DNA of 64,000 nt from an uncultured Candidatus Saccharibacteria bacterium (GTDB lineage: Bacteria; Patescibacteriota; Minisyncoccia; Phycocordibacterales; JAKFXT01), in contig CAYLPX010000001.1 of the NCBI GenBank assembly GCA_964385825.1, forward strand, positions 271,959-335,958, given 5' to 3'. Shown here piece by piece: positions 3,999 to 43,670 of this stretch. The notes under the pieces were generated by a model. That model was not told where the DNA came from and did no database searches. It worked only from the letters and a program-made list of their open reading frames with translations. Position 1 is the stretch's first letter, and each line of letters begins with the position of its first letter. The position numbers were made by a program, and so were the translations under genes.

Positions 3999-4035
3999 AA
4001 ACTACTCCCCTAGATTTAAATACCCCAATAAATAT

Positions 4036-4410
4036 ATGGACGAAACTTCACCTCCCCCAAAATTTAACTTTAATAAAATTTTAGAAACTTTTGGTTTCCT
4101 AATTAGAAACGGATTTGTTTGGTTTATTTTCTCTATATTTGCTGGCCTAGGTGAAATGGATATTAAATTTATTAGTGAAAAGACTTACGAATTGATAGGT
4201 CTTCCTTTTTTTCTTATCTGGCCAATACATACTTTCTACTTCATAAGTGTCCTATTAATTTTATTTTTTAAAAATGAACAGAATAAGTTTTTCATATTTA
4301 TACAAAAAAATCTTAAAACTTCTAAACTTCTTTTATTTACCCCTCTTGTATTTGTTTTCTCGATGGAACTTATTAGACTTATACTTTATTTAATCTTTCA
4401 AAAATTTTAA
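4036..4410 (+). CDS. Hypothetical small membrane protein in a very AT-rich island
   Basis: 124-aa ORF with 3 hydrophobic segments; extreme AT content; no recognisable family. Confidence 0.3.
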   Translation: MDETSPPPKFNFNKILETFGFLIRNGFVWFIFSIFAGLGEMDIKFISEKTYELIGLPFFLIWPIHTFYFISVLLILFFKNEQNKFFIFIQKNLKTSKLLLFTPLVFVFSMELIRLILYLIFQKF

Positions 4411-4422
4411 AAACTCGCTCTA

Positions 4423-4662
4423 CTAATCTAAAATGGTATTTTTAAGTTTTTCGAACGACGGATAATTACTAATGTTTTGTTCCTGAATAAAAGCTGTGTA
4501 TACGGTTTCCAACTCCTCAAGTGCATTTTCAATATTAACAATCATTAGTTGATCCTCTGCAGAATCTTTAATCTCAGGTTTATCTGTTGGTTTTTTAAGA
4601 TCCTTGAGTTCCAATAGTAGTGCTTGTATTGCGTAAAATGTTGTTTTTAAAGTTATTTCCAT
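4423..4662 (-). CDS. Hypothetical small acidic protein (79 aa, from the internal Met)
   Basis: The upstream part of the 188-aa ORF overlaps tRNA-Val and repeats, so only the AT-rich C-terminal 79 codons are plausible. Confidence 0.25.
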   Translation of the reverse strand: MEITLKTTFYAIQALLLELKDLKKPTDKPEIKDSAEDQLMIVNIENALEELETVYTAFIQEQNISNYPSFEKLKNTILD

Positions 4663-4681
4663 AGTACGTTTAATTATAATG

Positions 4682-4711
4682 CAGGATTCGGTCACGCATA
4701 ATTTTTTGCTA
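4682..4711. repeat. 30-bp direct repeat, copy 1 (caggattcggtcacgcataattttttgcta)
   Basis: Identical copy at 4781-4810; the two flank a 69-bp imperfect hairpin segment. Confidence 0.8.
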
Positions 4712-4780
4712 ACTTGTCTTGTGGTCAGGGATATTTTGCGTGTCGTCACACACAAAATTCCACGACCCTGGCTCGCAAGA

Positions 4781-4866
4781 CAGGATTCGGTCACGCATAA
4801 TTTTTTGCTAAAAATTTGCGCTACCCCGCCTCGGCTCATCAGCCTCCGGCCTTCAACTCCTATACC
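4781..4866 (+). repeat. tRNA-associated GGTCAC element, copy E1 (includes 30-bp direct repeat copy 2)
   Basis: About 75% identical to 37527-37600 and 8318-8395 (ggtcacRNataattttttgctaaaaatttNNgcgaccccgNctcggc...cagcc). Confidence 0.7.
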
Positions 4867-4873
4867 GCGCACG
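4852..4873. repeat. Inverted copy of the tRNA-Val 3' end (T-loop plus acceptor 3' strand)
   Basis: ttcaactcctataccgcgcac is the exact reverse complement of 4898-4918; the 21-bp arms are separated by a 24-nt spacer holding a cccct/agggg mini-hairpin. Confidence 0.85.
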
Positions 4874-4898
4874 CGCCCCTCTAAGGGGACTGTCTTAG

Positions 4899-4971
4899 TG
4901 CGCGGTATAGGAGTTGAACCTATGACCCCAATCACGTCAAGATTGTGCTCTACCAACTGAGCTAACCGCGC
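4899..4971 (-). tRNA. tRNA-Val (anticodon GAC)
   Basis: Manual cloverleaf: acceptor GCGCGGT/ACCGCGC, D arm GCTC/GAGC, anticodon stem CAATC/GATTG with loop TTGACGT, T arm ATAGG-TTCAACT-CCTAT. Confidence 0.85.
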
Positions 4972-5040
4972 ATGTAGCGATACTATCAAATCCCCCCGCT
5001 CCTTTCCACTCCCCTCTAAACAAAATTAAAGGTTAACTTA

Positions 5041-8279: not shown

Positions 8280-8302
8280 TATTTTAATTTAAATACTAAC
8301 AT

Positions 8303-8321
8303 GCGGAGATGGGGAGATTTG
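8303..8321. repeat. Direct repeat of the tRNA-Ser(CGA) 3' end (gcggagatggggagatttg), joined to the GGTCAC element
   Basis: Identical to 8479-8497 inside the tRNA gene. Confidence 0.85.
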
Positions 8322-8395
8322 GTCACAGATAAATTCTTTCAAAATTTTCCGCGACCCCGACTCGGCGACAAGCCCAAGCAAAGCTTGTCTTGTAT
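8318..8395 (+). repeat. tRNA-associated GGTCAC element, copy E3
   Basis: ggtcacagataaattctttcaaaattttccgcgaccccgactcggcgacaagcc aligns with E1 and E2. Confidence 0.6.
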
Positions 8396-8479
8396 ACCGC
8401 CTCCGTCTTTCAAATCTCCCCGTAACTCACACAATGATGCTTCGCTCAAATAGCATAAAGCTATTTTCGCGAATCATTG

Positions 8480-8566
8480 CGGAGATGGGGAGATTTGAAC
8501 TCCCGATGGGGTTACCCCCATGCCTGATTTCGAGTCAGGTGCCTTCAACCACTCAGCCACATCTCC
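8480..8566 (-). tRNA. tRNA-Ser (anticodon CGA), long variable arm
   Basis: Acceptor GGAGATG/CATCTCC, anticodon stem CCTGA/TCAGG with loop CTCGAAA, variable arm CATGGGGGTAACCCCATC, T arm GGGAG-TTCAAAT-CTCCC. Confidence 0.85.
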
Positions 8567-18531: not shown

Positions 18532-19155
18532 ATGTCTCCCGTTATTCGCCCACATAATCAAGGTTTTTCGCTTATTGAACTTTTAGTCGTATTGGCCATT
18601 TTAAGCCTACTTTTCACAACTGTCTTTTCGCTCCTTAACTCTTCACAAGAAAGAGCTCGTGATGCAAAGCGTATTGCTGACATGAAGCGTATTCAATTAG
18701 CCGTTGAGCGATACTATGATGACTATGGACACTACCCTGACACCAACGGGCAGATTGCTTGCTTTGATTGCGGTAGTTTTTACAATACCCCTATAGTCAA
18801 TCCCGCGGCAACTGATATTCGTGCGGCCCTCCTGCCATATCTTAAAACCCCTCCAACAGACCCCCTCCCCTGGTCATCGCGCGGCGAGGCTGGATATCTG
18901 TATTGGGGACGCAGAAGTAGTTTTCAAATTACCTCTTTTTGGAATCCTGAAAATATGTTCAACTACCCAACCAGCATGAGCTACAACTGGTGGTGGTGTA
19001 ATTCTATTTCAGCCTCTGGTCAATGTGTACAGCATCCTCTAAACACAAGTGTGGTTAATTTTGCCTTTCTTGGCGCTGGAATCTGCTCAGACGGCTTTTG
19101 TAACGAATGGGGCGATCAGTGTATTGGGGGCAGGCCCACTACCTATTGCCAATAA
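18532..19155 (+). CDS. Type IV pilin-like protein with Cys-rich C-terminal domain
   Basis: Prepilin signal HNQGFSLIELLVVLAILSLL; about 10 cysteines in the C-terminal half. Confidence 0.6.
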   Translation: MSPVIRPHNQGFSLIELLVVLAILSLLFTTVFSLLNSSQERARDAKRIADMKRIQLAVERYYDDYGHYPDTNGQIACFDCGSFYNTPIVNPAATDIRAALLPYLKTPPTDPLPWSSRGEAGYLYWGRRSSFQITSFWNPENMFNYPTSMSYNWWWCNSISASGQCVQHPLNTSVVNFAFLGAGICSDGFCNEWGDQCIGGRPTTYCQ

Positions 19156-19170
19156 CTTAAAATTTTTAAC

Positions 19171-19211
19171 CAAAAATACTCCACATTTTTGTGCCGAGGA
19201 CCGGGCTCGAA
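19171..19211. repeat. 41-bp direct repeat, copy 1 (tRNA-Phe 3'-terminal 22 nt plus 19 nt of 3' flank)
   Basis: Identical to 19324-19364. Confidence 0.9.
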
Positions 19212-19292
19212 TCTTACAGATTCAGTCCCCGTGTTTGGATTTTTTCTCGCACAAGAGTGCTTGAAAAATGCTCAAACAGGCTTCGAGCCCGG

Positions 19293-19336
19293 CACGTTTG
19301 TCTCCCAGACAAACTCCTCGCGTCAAAAATACTCCA
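19293..19336. repeat. T-arm fragment in opposite orientation (ggcttcgagcccggcac) followed by hairpin tttgtct-ccc-agacaaa
   Basis: Matches the tRNA-Phe T-loop/T-stem in the orientation opposite to the gene; the same fragment-plus-hairpin module is seen at the Arg, Gly and Ser(CGA) loci. Confidence 0.7.
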
Positions 19337-19364
19337 CATTTTTGTGCCGAGGACCGGGCTCGAA
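19324..19364. repeat. 41-bp direct repeat, copy 2 (overlaps the 3' end of the tRNA-Phe gene)
   Basis: Identical to 19171-19211. Confidence 0.9.
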
Positions 19365-19417
19365 CCGGTGACCCCTTCCTCTTCAGGGAAATGCTCTACC
19401 AACTGAGCTACCTCGGC
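19345..19417 (-). tRNA. tRNA-Phe (anticodon GAA)
   Basis: Acceptor GCCGAGG/CCTCGGC, D arm GCTC-AGTTGGTA-GAGC, anticodon loop CTGAAGA, T arm ACCGG-TTCGAGC-CCGGT. Confidence 0.85.
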
Positions 19418-19427
19418 ATATTTATTA

Positions 19428-19492
19428 TCTACCAACTGAGCCCTGCCCTGTCTGCCGACAGGCAGGCTGCAAAGGCAGGTACCTCGGCAAAT
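19428..19492 (-). pseudogene. Disrupted partial copy of the tRNA-Phe 5' half (acceptor plus D arm) split by a 39-nt GC-rich insert
   Basis: The reverse complement reads TGCCGAGGTA|CCTGCCTTTGCAGCCTGCCTGTCGGCAGACAGGGCAGGG|CTCAGTTGGTAGAT. Confidence 0.55.
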
Positions 19493-19539
19493 ACCGATTA
19501 TTTATAACAGAAAAAAAGGCTATTTGCCAGTAAAAAAAA

Positions 19540-19914
19540 CTACTGTTTAACTGGGGTTTCTGGAGCCTCTGAGGGAATTTTAACCTTATTAAGAATATTC
19601 TGAATCCCGGGGGTTGTAGGGAGTTTTAGGTTTTTTGCCCCCTGTTCAGTGGCATTAAGTGTAGAGGTAAAATTGAGCAAGGCACGCCCCGTTTCAATAA
19701 CACTATAGTAGCCAGATTGAATAATATTAAAATAGGGGCGTAATTGGTAATAACTAACTCCAAGTAGACTTACAATAATGATAACCTTAAACCAGGTATA
19801 AAAACGGGACCAGCGAACATAACTTTGGATACCTTTCAGCATCTTGTTATTTTCATCTGTCTCTTCAGCTATTTTCTCAAGCAATTGTCTTCCGTACGGA
19901 TCAGTTGGTGGCAT
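19540..19914 (-). CDS. Hypothetical membrane protein
   Basis: 124 aa with one TM helix. Confidence 0.4.
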   Translation of the reverse strand: MPPTDPYGRQLLEKIAEETDENNKMLKGIQSYVRWSRFYTWFKVIIIVSLLGVSYYQLRPYFNIIQSGYYSVIETGRALLNFTSTLNATEQGAKNLKLPTTPGIQNILNKVKIPSEAPETPVKQ

Positions 19915-19969
19915 GCTATATAGTATACCACCCTAAAAATATGGCAGAAGCAAGAATCTGTGAGTAAAA

Positions 19970-19988
19970 GGTGCTCTCGGCCGGAATC
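19970..19988. repeat. Direct repeat of the tRNA-Arg(CCT) 3' end (ggtgctctcggccggaatc)
   Basis: Identical to 20104-20122 in the tRNA gene. Confidence 0.85.
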
Positions 19989-20030
19989 TCGCCCAACGGT
20001 CGCGGGTGCTTTTCCATTTCGCTCCGCTCA

Positions 20031-20071
20031 ATAAGGAAAAGCCTTTCGATTCCGGCACATAAGCAAAGCAG
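20031..20071. repeat. T-arm fragment in opposite orientation (cctttcgattccggcac) followed by hairpin ataagcaaa-gcag-tttgcttat
   Basis: Same module as at the Gly and Phe loci. Confidence 0.7.
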
Positions 20072-20105
20072 TTTGCTTATTCAGAACACCCTCATTATAT
20101 TCGGG

Positions 20106-20177
20106 TGCTCTCGGCCGGAATCGAACCGACAATAACTCCTTAGGACGGAGCAGTTATATCCATTTAACTACGAGAGC
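20106..20177 (-). tRNA. tRNA-Arg (anticodon CCT)
   Basis: Acceptor GCTCTCG/CGAGAGC, D stem GTTA/TAAC, anticodon stem GCTCC/GGAGT with loop GTCCTAA, T arm GTCGG-TTCGATT-CCGGC. Confidence 0.75.
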
Positions 20178-20186
20178 TTGTCTGCC

Positions 20187-20236
20187 ACTATACCATCAAG
20201 TTCTCCGTAGAAAAAACACCCTCTTTAAGGGTGTTT
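20187..20236. terminator. Long hairpin (ccgtagaaaaaacaccc-tcttta-agggtgttttttctacgg), a bidirectional terminator candidate
   Basis: 17-bp stem with internal A/T tracts; lies between tRNA-Arg and the grx-like gene. Confidence 0.6.
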
Positions 20237-20267
20237 TTTCTACGGACTCAACCGATAAATTAACCAA

Positions 20268-20507
20268 TTATGCTGCTACCCCTAGAGCACTCGCAAAAGC
20301 TTGTTTATCAAAACCAACCATAATTTGCCCATCAATGTCTATTACTGGTACCCCCTTCTGTCCTGACTTGTCTACCATTTCAGTAAGCTTCTCGCGATCA
20401 GCTTGAACATTATACTCGGTATACGCAATACCATTCTCCTTCATAAAATCTTTAGCCATGTTACAAAAATGGCAAGTTGGAGTGCTGTAGATTTGGATAT
20501 TTTTCAT
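20268..20507 (-). CDS. Glutaredoxin-like / NrdH-redoxin family protein
   Basis: 79 aa, CHFC active site after beta1 (IQIYSTPTCHFC), thioredoxin-fold pattern. Confidence 0.75.
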   Translation of the reverse strand: MKNIQIYSTPTCHFCNMAKDFMKENGIAYTEYNVQADREKLTEMVDKSGQKGVPVIDIDGQIMVGFDKQAFASALGVAA

Positions 20508-20621
20508 ACGCTTTTTAAATTAGTTTTTTAAAGGAATAATATTATATCAAGAATTATAATTGAGTTCCAGTTCTCCTAGAGACACGAGTAGCATCTTCTA
20601 CCCACAAATAAGGTAAACACA

Positions 20622-20642
20622 GTAGTGCGGGTAGGGGTAATC
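20622..20642. repeat. Direct repeat of the tRNA-Gly 3' end (tagtgcgggtaggggtaatcg)
   Basis: Identical to 20766-20786. Confidence 0.85.
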
Positions 20643-20663
20643 GCCCCCCTACAGGAGCAGTAC

Positions 20664-20754
20664 AGCTTTTCCTTATGTTTGCTTGATAGGAATCAATCAA
20701 ACATAAGGAAAAGCTTTTTTGATTACCCCACACAGACAAAGCAGTTTGTCTGTT
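20664..20754. repeat. 18-bp perfect hairpin, T-arm fragment in opposite orientation (ttttgattaccccacac), and hairpin acagacaaa-gcag-tttgtctgt
   Basis: agcttttccttatgtttg / caaacataaggaaaagct is a perfect inverted repeat; the module order matches the Arg and Phe loci. Confidence 0.7.
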
Positions 20755-20767
20755 TACCACAGATTTA

Positions 20768-20838
20768 GTGCGGGTAGGGGTAATCGAAACCCCGCCTCAA
20801 CCTTGGGAAGGTCGCATTCTGCCACTAAACTATACCCG
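20768..20838 (-). tRNA. tRNA-Gly (anticodon CCC)
   Basis: Acceptor GCGGGTA/TACCCGC, anticodon stem CGACC/GGTTG with loop TTCCCAA, T arm GGGGT-TTCGATT-ACCCC. Confidence 0.8.
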
Positions 20839-24085: not shown

Positions 24086-24114
24086 TAGTATCTACCCGCC
24101 TAACTTAACCCAAT

Positions 24115-24160
24115 GAACGTGACGTCTATTCACGCTATAGCGTAAATAGACGTCACGTTC
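24115..24160. repeat. 46-bp near-perfect palindrome (1 mismatch) containing two GACGTC sites and a central cgctatagcg
   Basis: gaacgtgacgtctattcacgctatagcgtaaatagacgtcacgttc. Confidence 0.8.
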
Positions 24161-24263
24161 ACTTTCCCTATTTCTCTATTTTTATATTCTGAAATCACTA
24201 ATCTTCTTCGCTTGCTCCTATTTACATTCGCAAATCTTAGAACACAAATCTTCCCTTAATCTC

Positions 24264-28468: not shown

Positions 28469-28822
28469 GGTTCTTGTTGGATAACCGCGCTTAGCCCTTT
28501 TGGGGCTTAGTGAGGAAAGTCCGGGCATAGCTAGGCTTTAGCCTAGAGCACGGTAGCGGGTAACCCCCGTCTGTGGCAACACAAGAGGTGCGAACAGTGA
28601 CGCTGATGTCGAAAGGCTAGGTTCCCTCTTATTTAGTTAAGGGAAAATCTTGTTGAAAAACAAGGGTGCAACGGCAAAATCCTTACCACTATGCAAGGCC
28701 GTGCTCTGGGGCAACCCAGAGAGTGCCGCTTGAGCCCATCAGCAATGGTGGGCCTAGATAAATGGTTATCGTTTTGTTTCGCAAGAAATGAAATACAGAA
28801 CCCGGCTTATAGGCAGGAACAC
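28469..28822 (+). ncRNA. rnpB: RNase P RNA (bacterial type A)
   Basis: P4 halves GAGGAAAGTCCGGGC and ACAGAACCCGGCTTA; GCTTGAGCC...GGGCCTAGATAAATGG matches the E. coli P15-P18 region; P1 pairs ggttcttg with caggaac. Confidence 0.85.
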
Positions 28823-28830
28823 AACAATGG

Positions 28831-29715: not shown

Positions 29716-29889
29716 AATTTCTTATAGCTAAAATGTAGACAAATTTTATTTTAGTATCCTAACATTGTGGGTAGTTGTGGATAAAAGGGTGTATTAATGC
29801 TTATATGGCTTATAATGAACCAAGTAAGCATAAGCGCATGCAATGCTTGCGGATAAAAAGCCACAGTTGATATTTGAGAGACAAAATCG

Positions 29890-29972
29890 TACCGGTGACG
29901 GGATTTGAACCCGCAATCCAGCCAGGAGCTAGTTCCGTAAACTAGTGCGTATACCAATTTCGCCACACCGGC
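29890..29972 (-). tRNA. Class II (long variable arm) tRNA, Leu-like body; anticodon reads ACG in my manual fold; identity uncertain
   Basis: Acceptor GCCGGTG/CACCGGT (G1-U72), D arm GCG-AAATTGGTATA-CGC, anticodon stem CTAGT/ACTAG with loop TTACGGA, 14-nt variable arm, T arm GCGGG-TTCAAAT-CCCGT, discriminator A. Confidence 0.6.
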
Positions 29973-37220: not shown

Positions 37221-37359
37221 GGATCCCTCCTTGGAAAAGGGGTTAGAAAAAACGAAATGAGCCCTAAGCTCCGAAATATATTATATCATATATATACAAA
37301 AAAGCAAGTCATCACGACCTGCTCGGGAATTCAGAAAATCTCATTTCGCTAAGGTATTT

Positions 37360-37379
37360 GCGGAGACGGAGAGATTTGG
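37360..37379. repeat. Imperfect copy of a tRNA-Ser 3' end (gcggagacggagagatttgg) joined to a GGTCAGGAATATTTT motif
   Basis: 17/19 match to 37412-37430 (tRNA-Ser GGA) and to the Ser(CGA) 3' end; ggtcaggaatatttt also occurs at 4723-4737 as ggtcagggatatttt. Confidence 0.7.
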
Positions 37380-37413
37380 TCAGGAATATTTTAGGATCCC
37401 TCCCATACAGAGC

Positions 37414-37498
37414 GGAGGCGGCGAGATTTGAACTCGCGAAACCTTTCGGTTTACACGCTTTCCAAGCGTGCGCACTAGACCACTATGCGACGCCTCCG
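37414..37498 (-). tRNA. tRNA-Ser (anticodon GGA), long variable arm
   Basis: Acceptor GGAGGCG/CGCCTCC, D stem GCAT/GTGC, anticodon stem CACGC/GCGTG with loop TTGGAAA, variable arm TAAACCGAAAGGTTTC, T arm GCGAG-TTCAAAT-CTCGC. Confidence 0.8.
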
Positions 37499-37526
37499 CT
37501 CTGTAAAGGATTTGAAGAATCGTACT

Positions 37527-37600
37527 ATGCGCACTAGGTCACAGATAATTTTTTGCTAAAAATTTCTGCGACCCCGTCTCGGCTCGTCAGCCTCCGACTC
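37527..37600 (+). repeat. tRNA-associated GGTCAC element, copy E2
   Basis: ggtcacagataattttttgctaaaaatttctgcgaccccgtctcggctcgtcagcctccg is about 85% identical to E1; preceded by a scrambled copy of the tRNA-Ser D-arm region (actatgcgcactag). Confidence 0.7.
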
Positions 37601-37664
37601 TTCGGGTTTTACATTCAACCCGAAGCACTATACGACGTCTCCAGTCTGGCAAAGATAACAGAAA

Positions 37665-43014: not shown

Positions 43015-43281
43015 TTGTCCATCCCGAGGGAAAACATGATCCAACCATTTTGGCTTTACCTCCTTACCTTTGCGATTGGGATATGTGTTGCCCATATCGC
43101 AAGCCATTGCGAAAAAATGGCGATGAGTCCCGCCAGAAGAATGTTGGCGGAGGCTCGGGAGAAGAAGTACCCAACTCCCTCGATTTTCTGGCAAATCATG
43201 GCGGCCATTCTGGCTGCATGGGTAATGGACTATGCGGGGGAAATAACCGACTTTTACACACTCGGACCGCCGCCGTACTAA
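43015..43281 (+). CDS. Small membrane protein, GC-rich mini-island I
   Basis: GAGGGA ribosome-binding site; GC-rich; 38-bp terminator module downstream. Confidence 0.45.
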   Translation: MSIPRENMIQPFWLYLLTFAIGICVAHIASHCEKMAMSPARRMLAEAREKKYPTPSIFWQIMAAILAAWVMDYAGEITDFYTLGPPPY

Positions 43282-43287
43282 CCCCGT

Positions 43288-43325
43288 CCCCGCGAAGGCC
43301 GCCTTCGCGGGGCCTTTGTTTGTAT
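43288..43325 (+). terminator. 38-bp terminator module, copy 1 (ccccgcgaagg-CCGC-cttcgcgggg, then cctttgtttgtat)
   Basis: Identical to 43633-43670. Confidence 0.8.
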
Positions 43326-43632: not shown

Positions 43633-43670
43633 CCCCGCGAAGGCCGCCTTCGCGGGGCCTTTGTTTGTAT
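43633..43670 (+). terminator. 38-bp terminator module, copy 2
   Basis: Identical to 43288-43325. Confidence 0.8.

Follow-up and report, generated by a model that had tools for sequence, protein, structure and literature searches.

The stretch of DNA analysed here, hereafter called the window, comprises 64,000 nucleotides (nt) from an uncultured Candidatus Saccharibacteria bacterium, a representative of the Patescibacteria, whose tiny genomes are thought to be poor in repeats and mobile elements. Eight tRNA genes were detected in the window by ARAGORN and Rfam, all located on the minus strand except tRNA-Glu, and six of the eight bear a structured module which is partly built from the tRNA itself. 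Depending on the tRNA, the module contains one of two unrelated cores, referred to as family A and family B. Family A corresponds to a set of GGTCAC repeats, which are an undescribed and widely conserved two-hairpin element of the Patescibacteria, also found in some Elusimicrobia. Three full copies (cores c1, c2 and c3, Table 1) and two partial ones occur in the window. All elements are described on the minus strand, the strand of the tRNAs, on which the GGTCAC motif is informative and reads ...GCCGAGNCGGGGUCGCG...CGUGACC. The three copies of identical orientation which a preliminary description of this DNA had reported are readily found, with the motif GCGACCCCGNCTCGGC at 4820, 8351 and 37568 (three matches against 0.37 expected by chance, a number reached in 0 of 100 shuffles), and starts of the type GGTCA.. 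occur at 4690, 4723, 4789, 8321 and 37537. The shorter variants 'GGTCAGGRATATTTT' noticed at 4723 and 37378 are equally real and consist of 3' halves or variants of the second hairpin.

The family-A core is made of a hairpin P2 with a GSA/GA internal loop and a hairpin P3 of the form GGUCGCG...CGUGACC with an invariant G·U pair. In the window copies, P2 reads GNC-GGA-GGC[loop]GCC-GA-GNC, the middle pair of its basal helix being C-G, U-A and A-U across the three copies, and P3 reads GGUCGCNNA..AU-rich hairpin..UNNGUGACC. The structure is specific to one strand. A covariance model (CM R1) gives minus-strand scores of 92.6 bits (4775-4865), 73.4 bits (8307-8422) and 75.9 bits (37523-37613), with E-values of ~1e-18 to 1e-24 that are to be read as rough, against no more than 13.8 bits for the window copies on the plus strand (11.5 bits for c1). 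The folding energies of the minus and plus strands are -37.8 vs -31.2, -74.4 vs -58.0 and -60.7 vs -44.8 kcal/mol.

An exact-pattern scan for the core, performed on one genome per species, yielded at least 120 loci, about 70 of which originate from Patescibacteria or Elusimicrobia. Saccharibacteria, Nomura-, Zambryski-, Kaiser-, Adler- and Taylorbacteria, Paceibacterota, other Parcubacteria and a few Elusimicrobia are represented among the matches listed. The matches from these two groups have a constant length of 46-49 nt, whereas the high-GC actinobacterial matches display odd lengths and are devoid of flanking features. A search with CM R1 over 575 kb from about 70 Patescibacteria and Elusimicrobia genomes (the labels L001 to L145 designate sampled loci or relatives outside the window) retrieved 87 copies, with up to three in 8 kb; because the loci were picked through an exact core match, the sample is biased and the frequencies given below are inflated. 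Dozens of species carry the element, contrary to the lack of copies and of conservation which, for the preliminary description, would have pointed to local duplication only.

The covariation, a check suggested there, is strong in an alignment of 33 family-A members, analysed against 500 shuffles and slid controls. Twenty-five columns are invariant. The proportion of paired cells reaches 88.5%, compared to 73.5% in the shuffles and 37-48% in the slid controls, and double-change cells number 174 vs 67, a value reached in 0 of 500 shuffles, all these statistics counting sequences and not events. Typical examples are the P2 pair 17:39 (CG 12, AU 10, GC 9, UA 1) and the P3 pair 50:72 (AU 15, CG 9, GC 9), the G47·U75 wobble being retained in 33 of 33 sequences. 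RNAalifold independently predicts the same P2 and P3. An Rfam family, also suggested as a check, is not found, the element having no match in Rfam 15, with its hammerhead, twister, pistol, hatchet, HDV-like, Y RNA and riboswitch families, at gathering or permissive thresholds: the whole window scanned at the gathering threshold returned only tRNAs and RNase P, and the region 4600-5000 scanned at E <=10 only tRNA and noise. In the literature, no paper containing the core sequence was found and keyword searches gave nothing comparable; the Patescibacteria tRNA paper that was retrieved concerns group I introns at position 35/36, unrelated to the element (PMC13011429).

Some resemblances to known RNAs were also considered and rejected. 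The Y-RNA-like appearance of GGUCG../..UGACC finds no support in Rfam, and the helix is an internal hairpin instead of a 5'/3'-end pairing. The stretch CUGAUGA evokes both a C/D box and a hammerhead ribozyme, and both readings were dismissed because other copies have a loop that varies, or an extra hairpin, at this site: CUGAUGA/CUGACGA occurs in c1 and c3 only, c2 has a 32-nt hairpin at this place, and other members exhibit an NGNCGN loop. A hammerhead has three helices connected by conserved CUGANGA and GAAA strands, and the junction strands of the element measure 3-5, 2-3 and 0 nt.

The relation of the element to tRNA genes is systematic. Among the 87 copies, 58 lie at most 250 nt downstream of a same-strand tRNA, covering 17 amino-acid specificities, and five lie upstream of one; none is located beside an opposite-strand tRNA only, 16 have no tRNA within 250 nt and the remaining eight are at a locus edge. 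Elements are thus co-oriented with the tRNA; the 3' trailer is their usual place, and the 5' arrangement, a mirror image, is the less common one. The preliminary description had found copies upstream of one tRNA and downstream of two; what is regular is the orientation, since 63 copies have a neighbouring tRNA on their own strand and 0 have one on the opposite strand alone.

In the 3' arrangement, the tRNA is followed by a trailer hairpin, an antisense copy of the tRNA starting from T54, the core and a second sense copy of the tRNA 3' end, after which the original downstream DNA resumes. The tRNA's own 3' part is designated X1 and the distal sense copy X2. The last nucleotides of the antisense arm, YGAA, are complementary to T54-R57, and the arm runs over 9-21 nt toward the tRNA 3' end; the sense copy begins at C56/R57 and reaches the tRNA end, often continuing into the trailer, for up to 44 nt. 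The resulting direct repeats of the tRNA end measure 7-44 nt and vary across loci. In a second class (L012, L045 and L051), the arms copy just the last nucleotides of the tRNA plus the trailer. In the 5' arrangement (L020, L093, L111 and window core c3), a sense copy of the tRNA 5' end is followed by the core, the antisense copy and the tRNA, so that the antisense is the copy nearer to the tRNA, whichever the arrangement, and the sense copy the more remote one. Each unit spans ~130-200 nt and contains no open reading frame (ORF).

These arms occur far more often than expected. Within 300 nt downstream of the 114 tRNAs of the sampled loci, a sense copy of the 3' end of at least 9 nt was found for 47%, vs 6.6% when tRNA identities were permuted; the corresponding values are 40% vs 6.5% for an antisense copy, and 31% vs 1.3% for both together. 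From T54 through the trailer hairpin to the antisense end, the sequence forms one long hairpin in 73% of 48 units (median z -7.6), so that the tRNA end forms one side of a quasi-palindrome with the trailer hairpin at its tip; perfect palindromes of up to 25 bp span the tRNA end and the terminator in L034 and L110. Of the positions that distinguish X1 from X2, 37 have an antisense matching X1, 7 an antisense matching X2 and 17 an antisense matching neither copy. In 22 of 48 units, a terminator-like hairpin and its T run come between the tRNA and the antisense, which argues for a role at the DNA level rather than a co-transcribed one. At the window copies, no terminator was found between the tRNA and the element.

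The anatomy of the window loci (Table 1) illustrates this organization, and the abutment of the copies on tRNA-derived fragments, already noticed in the preliminary description, is confirmed: 8302-8321 is identical to the last 20 nt of tRNA-Ser(cga), and the 21 nt of 4852-4872 repeat the tRNA-Val 3' end perfectly in inverted orientation. At the tRNA-Val locus, the stretch from T54 to the antisense end folds with -45 kcal/mol (z -10.3). The direct repeat reported around a hairpin at this locus also exists, with slightly different limits, as two 100% identical copies of 31 nt (4682-4712 and 4781-4811) separated by 68 nt that fold as a hairpin; it results from tandem or nested accretion, and CM R1 matches the partial copy c0 at 4724-4768 with 14.7 bits. 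Beyond the X2 of tRNA-Ser(cga), the start codon of the next ORF follows after 23 nt, and the H0 type of trailer hairpin seen at this locus also occurs after tRNA-Ser in L001, L038, L043 and L072. Around tRNA-Ser(gga), element c4 is located downstream and core c3 upstream. The direct repeats of the window measure 10, 19, 19, 20 and 41 nt.

Two of the window loci seem to have preserved a former state of the tRNA. The X2 of tRNA-Val matches the T arm kept in a relative (L134), from which the present tRNA-Val differs at 4 of the last 18 positions and, in compensation, at position 50. The outer tRNA-Ser fragments (GGAGACG / CGUCUCC) covary mutually and not with the inner functional tRNA: they possess A5 and U68, compared to G5-C68 in the tRNA-Ser(gga) lying between them. 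At both loci X2 is, judging from these sequences, an older allele of the tRNA end. In the trailer alignment of relatives, the spacers are AT-rich and saturated.

Table 1. Modules and tRNA genes of the window (positions in the window; X1, 3' part of the tRNA itself; X2, distal sense copy).
Feature	Position	Strand	Basis and remarks
tRNA-Val(gac)	4898..4971	-	ARAGORN + Rfam; last 21 nt (4898-4918) form the X1 arm
Spacer with small hairpin (CCCCUUAGAGGGG), tip of the long X1:antisense hairpin	4873..4897	-	Sequence and fold
Antisense arm, perfect 21-nt complement of tRNA-Val from position 54 to 3' end+1	4852..4872	-	Inverted repeat
Core c1: P2 GCC-GGA-GGC[UGAUGA]GCC-GA-GGC; P3 GGUAGCGCA..AU-rich hairpin..UGCGUGAC	4790..4851	-	CM 92.6 bits
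Distal sense copy X2 (CGAAUCCUGU), T loop and T stem of tRNA-Val	4780..4789	-	Matches the L134 allele, not the present window tRNA
Partial second element c0: remnant of P2 3' half (GCGAGCCAGG) and variant P3 (GGGUCGUGG...CCCUGACC)	4723..4779	-	CM and fold
Second copy of the last 31 nt of c1 (P3 3' half + CGAAUCCUG)	4682..4712	-	100% identity
tRNA-Ser(cga)	8479..8566	-	ARAGORN + Rfam; X1 8478-8497
Trailer hairpin H0 (AAUGAUUCGC...GCGAAGCAUCAUU)	8433..8478	-	Fold
Antisense arm GGGGAGAUUUGAA, complement of T54 to position 66 of tRNA-Ser(cga)	8409..8421	-	Sequence
Core c2: P2 with an extra inserted hairpin; P3 GGUCGCGGA...UCUGUGAC	8322..8408	-	CM 73.4 bits; 62.4 bits with filters off
Distal X2, 20/20 identical to the tRNA-Ser(cga) 3' end	8302..8321	-	Direct repeat
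tRNA-Ser(gga), with element copies and remnants of the older tRNA-Ser allele on both sides	37412..37497	-	ARAGORN
5' fragment of the older tRNA-Ser allele (GGAGACGUCGUAUAGUG, positions 1-17)	37626..37642	-	Covaries with 37359-37377
Hairpin CUUCGGGUUGAAUGUAAAACCCGAAG ahead of core c3	37600..37625	-	Fold
Core c3, 5'-side arrangement, upstream of tRNA-Ser(gga)	37538..37599	-	CM 75.9 bits over 37523-37613
D-arm-like flank (CUAGUGCGCAUAG), 3' side of c3	37525..37537	-	Sequence
Internally deleted element c4: antisense remnant and variant P3 3' half (..AAAAUAUUCCUGACC)	37378..37404	-	Sequence
Distal sense copy of a tRNA-Ser 3' end (AAAUCUCUCCGUCUCCGCA)	37359..37377	-	Acceptor strand pairs with 37626-37642, not with the functional tRNA
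Family-B module after tRNA-Phe	19171..19364	-	41-nt repeats 19171-19211/19324-19364; antisense 19282-19292; core 19212-19281
Family-B-like module after tRNA-Arg(cct)	19970..20122	-	X2 19970-19988; core 19989-20044; antisense 20045-20056; trailer hairpin 20059-20081
Family-B module after tRNA-Gly(ccc)	20625..20786	-	X2 20625-20643; core 20644-20716; antisense 20718-20729; trailer hairpin 20732-20755

The modules of tRNA-Phe, tRNA-Arg(cct) and tRNA-Gly(ccc) possess the same antisense and sense arms but an unrelated core, made up, in this order, of a long hairpin, the sequence UACUG and a short hairpin with UGUAA in its loop. This family-B core also occurs in L013, L067, L071, L117 and L120, and Rfam scanned over the region 19150-20800 at E <=1 returned noise alone, with no family-B match. 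Because an unrelated core makes use of the same arms, the logic of the arms is independent of the core. With respect to the trailers, which in many Patescibacteria have a hairpin after the tRNA of this kind, a hairpin loop (A)ACUGCU(U) is shared by stems that differ, in two of these modules (20059-20081 and 20732-20755) and in L031, L074, L075, L089, L099 and L134, and a trailer hairpin AAUGAU...CAUCAUU recurs after tRNA-Ser from Saccharibacteria to Paceibacterota.

Modules have been gained and lost. In the syntenic relatives L144 and L145, which share with the window the order TPR, MurJ, LepA, DivIC, tRNA-Gly, glutaredoxin, tRNA-Arg, tRNA-Phe, HSP20 and PrsW, the three tRNAs bear no module at all and no family-A match was found. 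Similarly, L135 has an element in the 180-nt spacer between Pth and S26, whereas the spacer of L134 measures 92 nt and is devoid of it, as are L136 and L138. Copies also nest and accumulate: in L113 (7701-7787), downstream of tRNA-Pro, a family-A copy is inserted within the P3 of another, variant core, and tandem units occur in L010 and L035. The nested pair occupies the region 7600-7830 of L113, an 8-kb locus with three family-A matches. Reduced core variants lacking the GGUCGCG/CGUGACC foot (L135 5977-6059 and 2568-2650; L027 6762-6848) are located between protein genes, with no tRNA near, and are closed by locus-specific stems of 13-30 bp. At the tRNA-Tyr of a saccharibacterium (L044, 1392-4629), a 3-kb segment is bounded by 178-nt direct repeats, each comprising the 3' part of the core, a tRNA-Tyr remnant and 119 nt of flank; this islet carries genes for a ThsB-like TIR protein, SLATT/DUF4231 and PGDYG. 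Two more tRNA-end-like fragments are seen in L044, at 4002-4033 and 4344-4375. Several contigs of the same strain as the window, assembled from short reads (L133, L140 and L141), end at or within elements, which suggests that these repeats break assemblies.

Pfam was used to look for genes that could account for mobility among 40 ORFs of the window and 102 ORFs adjoining 78 cores. No transposase, integrase or reverse transcriptase was found among the window genes and none recurs among the 102 neighbouring ORFs, two of which are large serine recombinases; no partner transposase or autonomous relative was detected in either set. The gene for the CCA-adding enzyme adjoins tRNA-Arg(tcg) and the element in L077, L113 and L120, which is probably a conserved synteny and not a functional link. 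A scan of 2.9 million viral contigs yielded no family member, its 12 matches being high-GC chance matches, and a phage origin was accordingly set aside.

The element shares features with several known systems and differs from each of them in others. Williams, in Nucleic Acids Res in 2002, is said to have placed the attachment (att) sites of tyrosine integrases at tRNA 3' ends, including a class with crossover in the T loop. Like such tRNA-targeting integrative elements and islands, the family-A units repeat the tRNA 3' part from the T loop (47% vs 6.6% in the control), leave the tRNA intact, pile up at a single tRNA and, in L044, bound a cargo islet. They differ from them by the lack of an integrase gene (none in the window), by a whole unit of only ~150-200 nt, by the antisense copy of the tRNA end and the covarying two-hairpin core, and by their occurrence also 5' of tRNAs and away from tRNAs. 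Other likenesses link the element to the folded att sites of the phage CTX-phi (attP), of the integrative mobile elements exploiting Xer (IMEX) and of integrons (attC), namely a strand-specific fold, an intrastrand pairing that rebuilds a mimic of the duplex target, and no need for a carried recombinase. The long hairpin of X1 and antisense found in 73% of the 48 units is what a folded attP of the CTX-phi/IMEX type implies. Unlike these sites, the element has the tRNA gene and not dif or attI as a target, is three-armed and displays no dif-like or R/L-box consensus. The integron attC proper was rejected, the element flanking tRNA and housekeeping genes, with no linked integrase and an unrelated consensus, as was a retron non-coding RNA, with no reverse transcriptase among the window genes or the 102 neighbouring ORFs.

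Repetitive extragenic palindromes (REP/REPIN), miniature inverted-repeat transposable elements (MITEs) and palindrome-associated transposable elements (PATEs) resemble the family in being small, gene-less, multi-copy, extragenic and hairpin-forming, with nested and tandem copies; the IS200/IS605-derived PATEs additionally form strand-specific hairpins, comparable to c1 with its 92.6 vs 11.5 bits and to the invariant G·U. The family differs from all three by its tie to tRNA genes and its long, variable duplication. A MITE requires conserved terminal inverted repeats and a short target duplication of fixed length, whereas the arms of the element differ at each locus, being sense and antisense copies of the adjacent tRNA, and its repeats vary from 7 to 44 nt; the MITE-like picture of the preliminary description is therefore abandoned. 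A PATE inserts 3' of a fixed 4-5-nt target with no duplication, which does not agree with copies of the tRNA end on both sides. Riboswitch aptamers also combine conserved covarying helices and a junction with a variable closing helix, one strand of which has an alternative partner, here the tRNA. In contrast to riboswitches, the element resides in tRNA flanks and not in an mRNA leader, is often preceded by terminators and is dispensable in close relatives: it is tied to tRNAs, yet the corresponding tRNAs of relatives do not have it. Archaeal split or permuted tRNA genes and the transposing tRNA introns of Thermoproteales are further known comparators, with tRNA fragments beside a complementary flank and insertions at D-loop and T-loop positions; the element differs from them by its bacterial host, a complete tRNA that needs no splicing and the lack of an evident bulge-helix-bulge. 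Taken together, the family lacks defining features of MITEs, PATEs, integrase islands, attC sites, retrons and all Rfam families, and by analogy its working would best be described as a combination of that of tRNA-targeting islands and that of folded att sites.

Three natures had been proposed for the repeats, a small non-autonomous mobile element, a recombination site or a small RNA. A non-autonomous mobile or recombination element is favoured, owing to the conserved structured family, the gain and loss, the nested and tRNA-free copies and the lack of a transposase or integrase nearby; only the MITE form is not retained. In the reading we prefer, to which we assign a probability of roughly 0.45, the modules would be a gene-less, strand-specific integrative element of tRNA genes, whose folded arms rebuild the duplex tRNA target. 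A single strand would fold into three arms, i.e., X1:antisense capped by the trailer hairpin (a hairpin that, within the unit, may often be the tRNA's terminator), P2 and P3. The X1:antisense arm would then be a duplex replica of the tRNA-gene target placed directly beside the conserved core and, if the core were joined to X1 by its 3' end, the arms would close on themselves. This folded structure would serve as the recombination site of the element, and a putative trans-acting enzyme encoded elsewhere, possibly by the host, would exchange strands at the core/X junction and within or near the tRNA T loop or, for the second class, at the tRNA 3' end. The unit would insert, the tRNA would stay intact, and the displaced or duplicated tRNA end would remain as X2. 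X1 could either travel with the element or be copied from the target at insertion.

Several observations weigh against this gene-less integrative element. The tRNA-Lys of L008 and L082 and the tRNA-Arg of L025 are followed by one and the same backbone (92% identity over 173 nt, trailer included), each copy with the correct tRNA-specific X1; this argues that the tRNA-specific arms can be recopied from the target, and an element carrying X1 needs an extra step, such as target copying or gene conversion. The first position of the family-B sense copy varies between 54 and 57, so the junction is not perfectly fixed. The combination of 25 invariant positions, covariation and G·U pairs across phylum-level distances is more typical of functional RNAs, and the window element is probably transcribed. 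Finally, the searches yielded no enzyme, excised form or strain-level empty site: the empty-site string for tRNA-Ser(cga) is absent from metagenome contigs, and same-strain contigs (identical FtsZ) either share one layout or stop at the element.

Other explanations assign a different role to the antisense arm or to the core. It is rather doubtful, but conceivable, that the core is an active RNA or a folded strand programmed by the antisense arm, in either of two versions: a guide, by which a protein-poor mobile element would base-pair with a tRNA gene, at its T arm or at its end, and direct its own insertion there, or a sensor, which would switch the adjacent pre-tRNA between foldable and antisense-trapped states. 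To our knowledge, neither version has a described precedent in bacteria. An unlikely explanation, slightly more so, is a cis-acting RNA switch or processing module located in pre-tRNA leaders and trailers, the antisense of which would pair either with the tRNA end, blocking its folding or processing, or with the distal decoy, forming a helix P1 that closes the core; the core would act as a sensor for a ligand, a protein or the temperature. The aptamer-like conservation of the core, its covariation and invariant G·U agree with such a switch, and so do the strict co-orientation with the tRNAs, the proximal antisense and distal sense copy of the 3' and 5' arrangements alike, an antisense that keeps step with the functional tRNA (21/21 matches at tRNA-Val) and the lack of a terminator between tRNA and element in the window. 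It is difficult to reconcile, however, with syntenic relatives lacking modules at the same tRNAs, with the terminator-like hairpin preceding the antisense in 22/48 copies, with a decoy that decays and overshoots the paired part into the trailer by up to 44 nt, with nested or tRNA-free copies and long locus-specific stems, and with the unrelated family-B core borne by the same arms.

Ordinary DNA breakage and repair, spreading a small insertion element with no dedicated site, is less probable again. The core would enter hairpin loops (the T loop, a terminator loop or the P3 loop of another copy), and the repeats would derive from staggered nicks or from snap-back/template-switch synthesis, i.e., quasi-palindrome extension. 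Repeats of 7-44 nt with a near boundary fixed in a loop and a variable far boundary, the perfect palindromes of L034 and L110 reaching 25 bp over tRNA end and terminator, the window 31-nt repeat beginning in the P3 loop, tRNA-specific arms on a shared backbone and tRNA-free copies with arbitrary long inverted flanks all agree with such events. This scheme leaves unexplained both the deep conservation of the core and the strict co-orientation with tRNAs, needs a continuing conversion between palindrome arms to make the antisense equal to X1 at 37/61 differing positions, and is further weakened in that we know of no transposition chemistry that gives such repeats. The modules might also be inert att-site scars of integrase-carrying prophages or islands once installed at tRNA genes and since deleted, but this is very improbable: in scars, 25 invariant positions, covarying helices and a fixed G·U would not have persisted over phylum-level distances, no family member occurs in the 2.9 million viral contigs, no integrase is linked and the antisense copy finds no explanation, even if the direct repeats start in the T loop like classical tRNA att sites, the L044 islet is accompanied by several tRNA-end remnants in series and 2/102 neighbouring ORFs are large serine recombinases. 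Hardly any more credit, and if anything a little less, can be given to a catalytic or replicating RNA, a new self-cleaving or self-ligating ribozyme or the DNA copy of a small viroid-like circle, in which the variable arm would be the substrate-binding helix. Small ribozymes indeed combine a conserved core and a flanking helix that varies freely, the structure is strand-specific, and on joining of the ends the three arms yield a closed, branched structure capped by hairpins throughout. The deep conservation, the G·U pairs, the strict co-orientation and the order of the antisense and sense copies also suit a ribozyme as well as a switch. Nevertheless, no known ribozyme family matches even at E <=10, c2 has a hairpin, and other members NGNCGN, where c1 and c3 show the hammerhead-like CUGAUGA, no reverse transcriptase lies among the 102 neighbouring ORFs, and the sense copy runs into genomic trailer DNA, so that it was copied from DNA or a precursor and not from mature tRNA.

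A few other structured features occur in the window. The tRNA-Arg(acg) gene (29889-29972), with 84 nt and a variable region unusually long for tRNA-Arg, is surrounded by 45-nt inverted repeats (29853-29897/29966-30010, 78% complementary) forming a long leader-trailer stem. The RNase P RNA (28469-28825, plus strand, 128.9 bits) is of the bacterial class A. Two identical 38-nt GC-rich terminator-like hairpins (CCCCGCGAAGGCCGCCUUCGCGGGG plus tail) are found 345 nt apart at 43288-43325 and 43633-43670, with a third, inverted copy at 43276-43312, and a near-perfect 48-bp palindrome (24114-24161; 24-nt arms, no spacer, 96% complementary) occupies the LepA/MurJ spacer.

About a third of the tRNAs in the sampled relatives also bear a module, and the covariance model is ready to be used for annotating Patescibacteria genomes, in which the partial tRNA copies and pseudo-tRNA fragments deriving from the modules can confuse annotation. 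If the modules are mobile, they would represent a new use of tRNA genes as safe landing sites, by an element which carries no gene and whose folded strand rebuilds the target, and they would mark hot spots for the entry of cargo, e.g., defence genes. If the core is programmed by its antisense arm, at least two unrelated cores, A (GGUCGCG/CGUGACC) and B (UACUG and the UGUAA loop), would have converged on the same arms. If the modules work at the RNA level, they would amount to a widespread cis-element for the control of bacterial tRNA maturation, the first of its kind.

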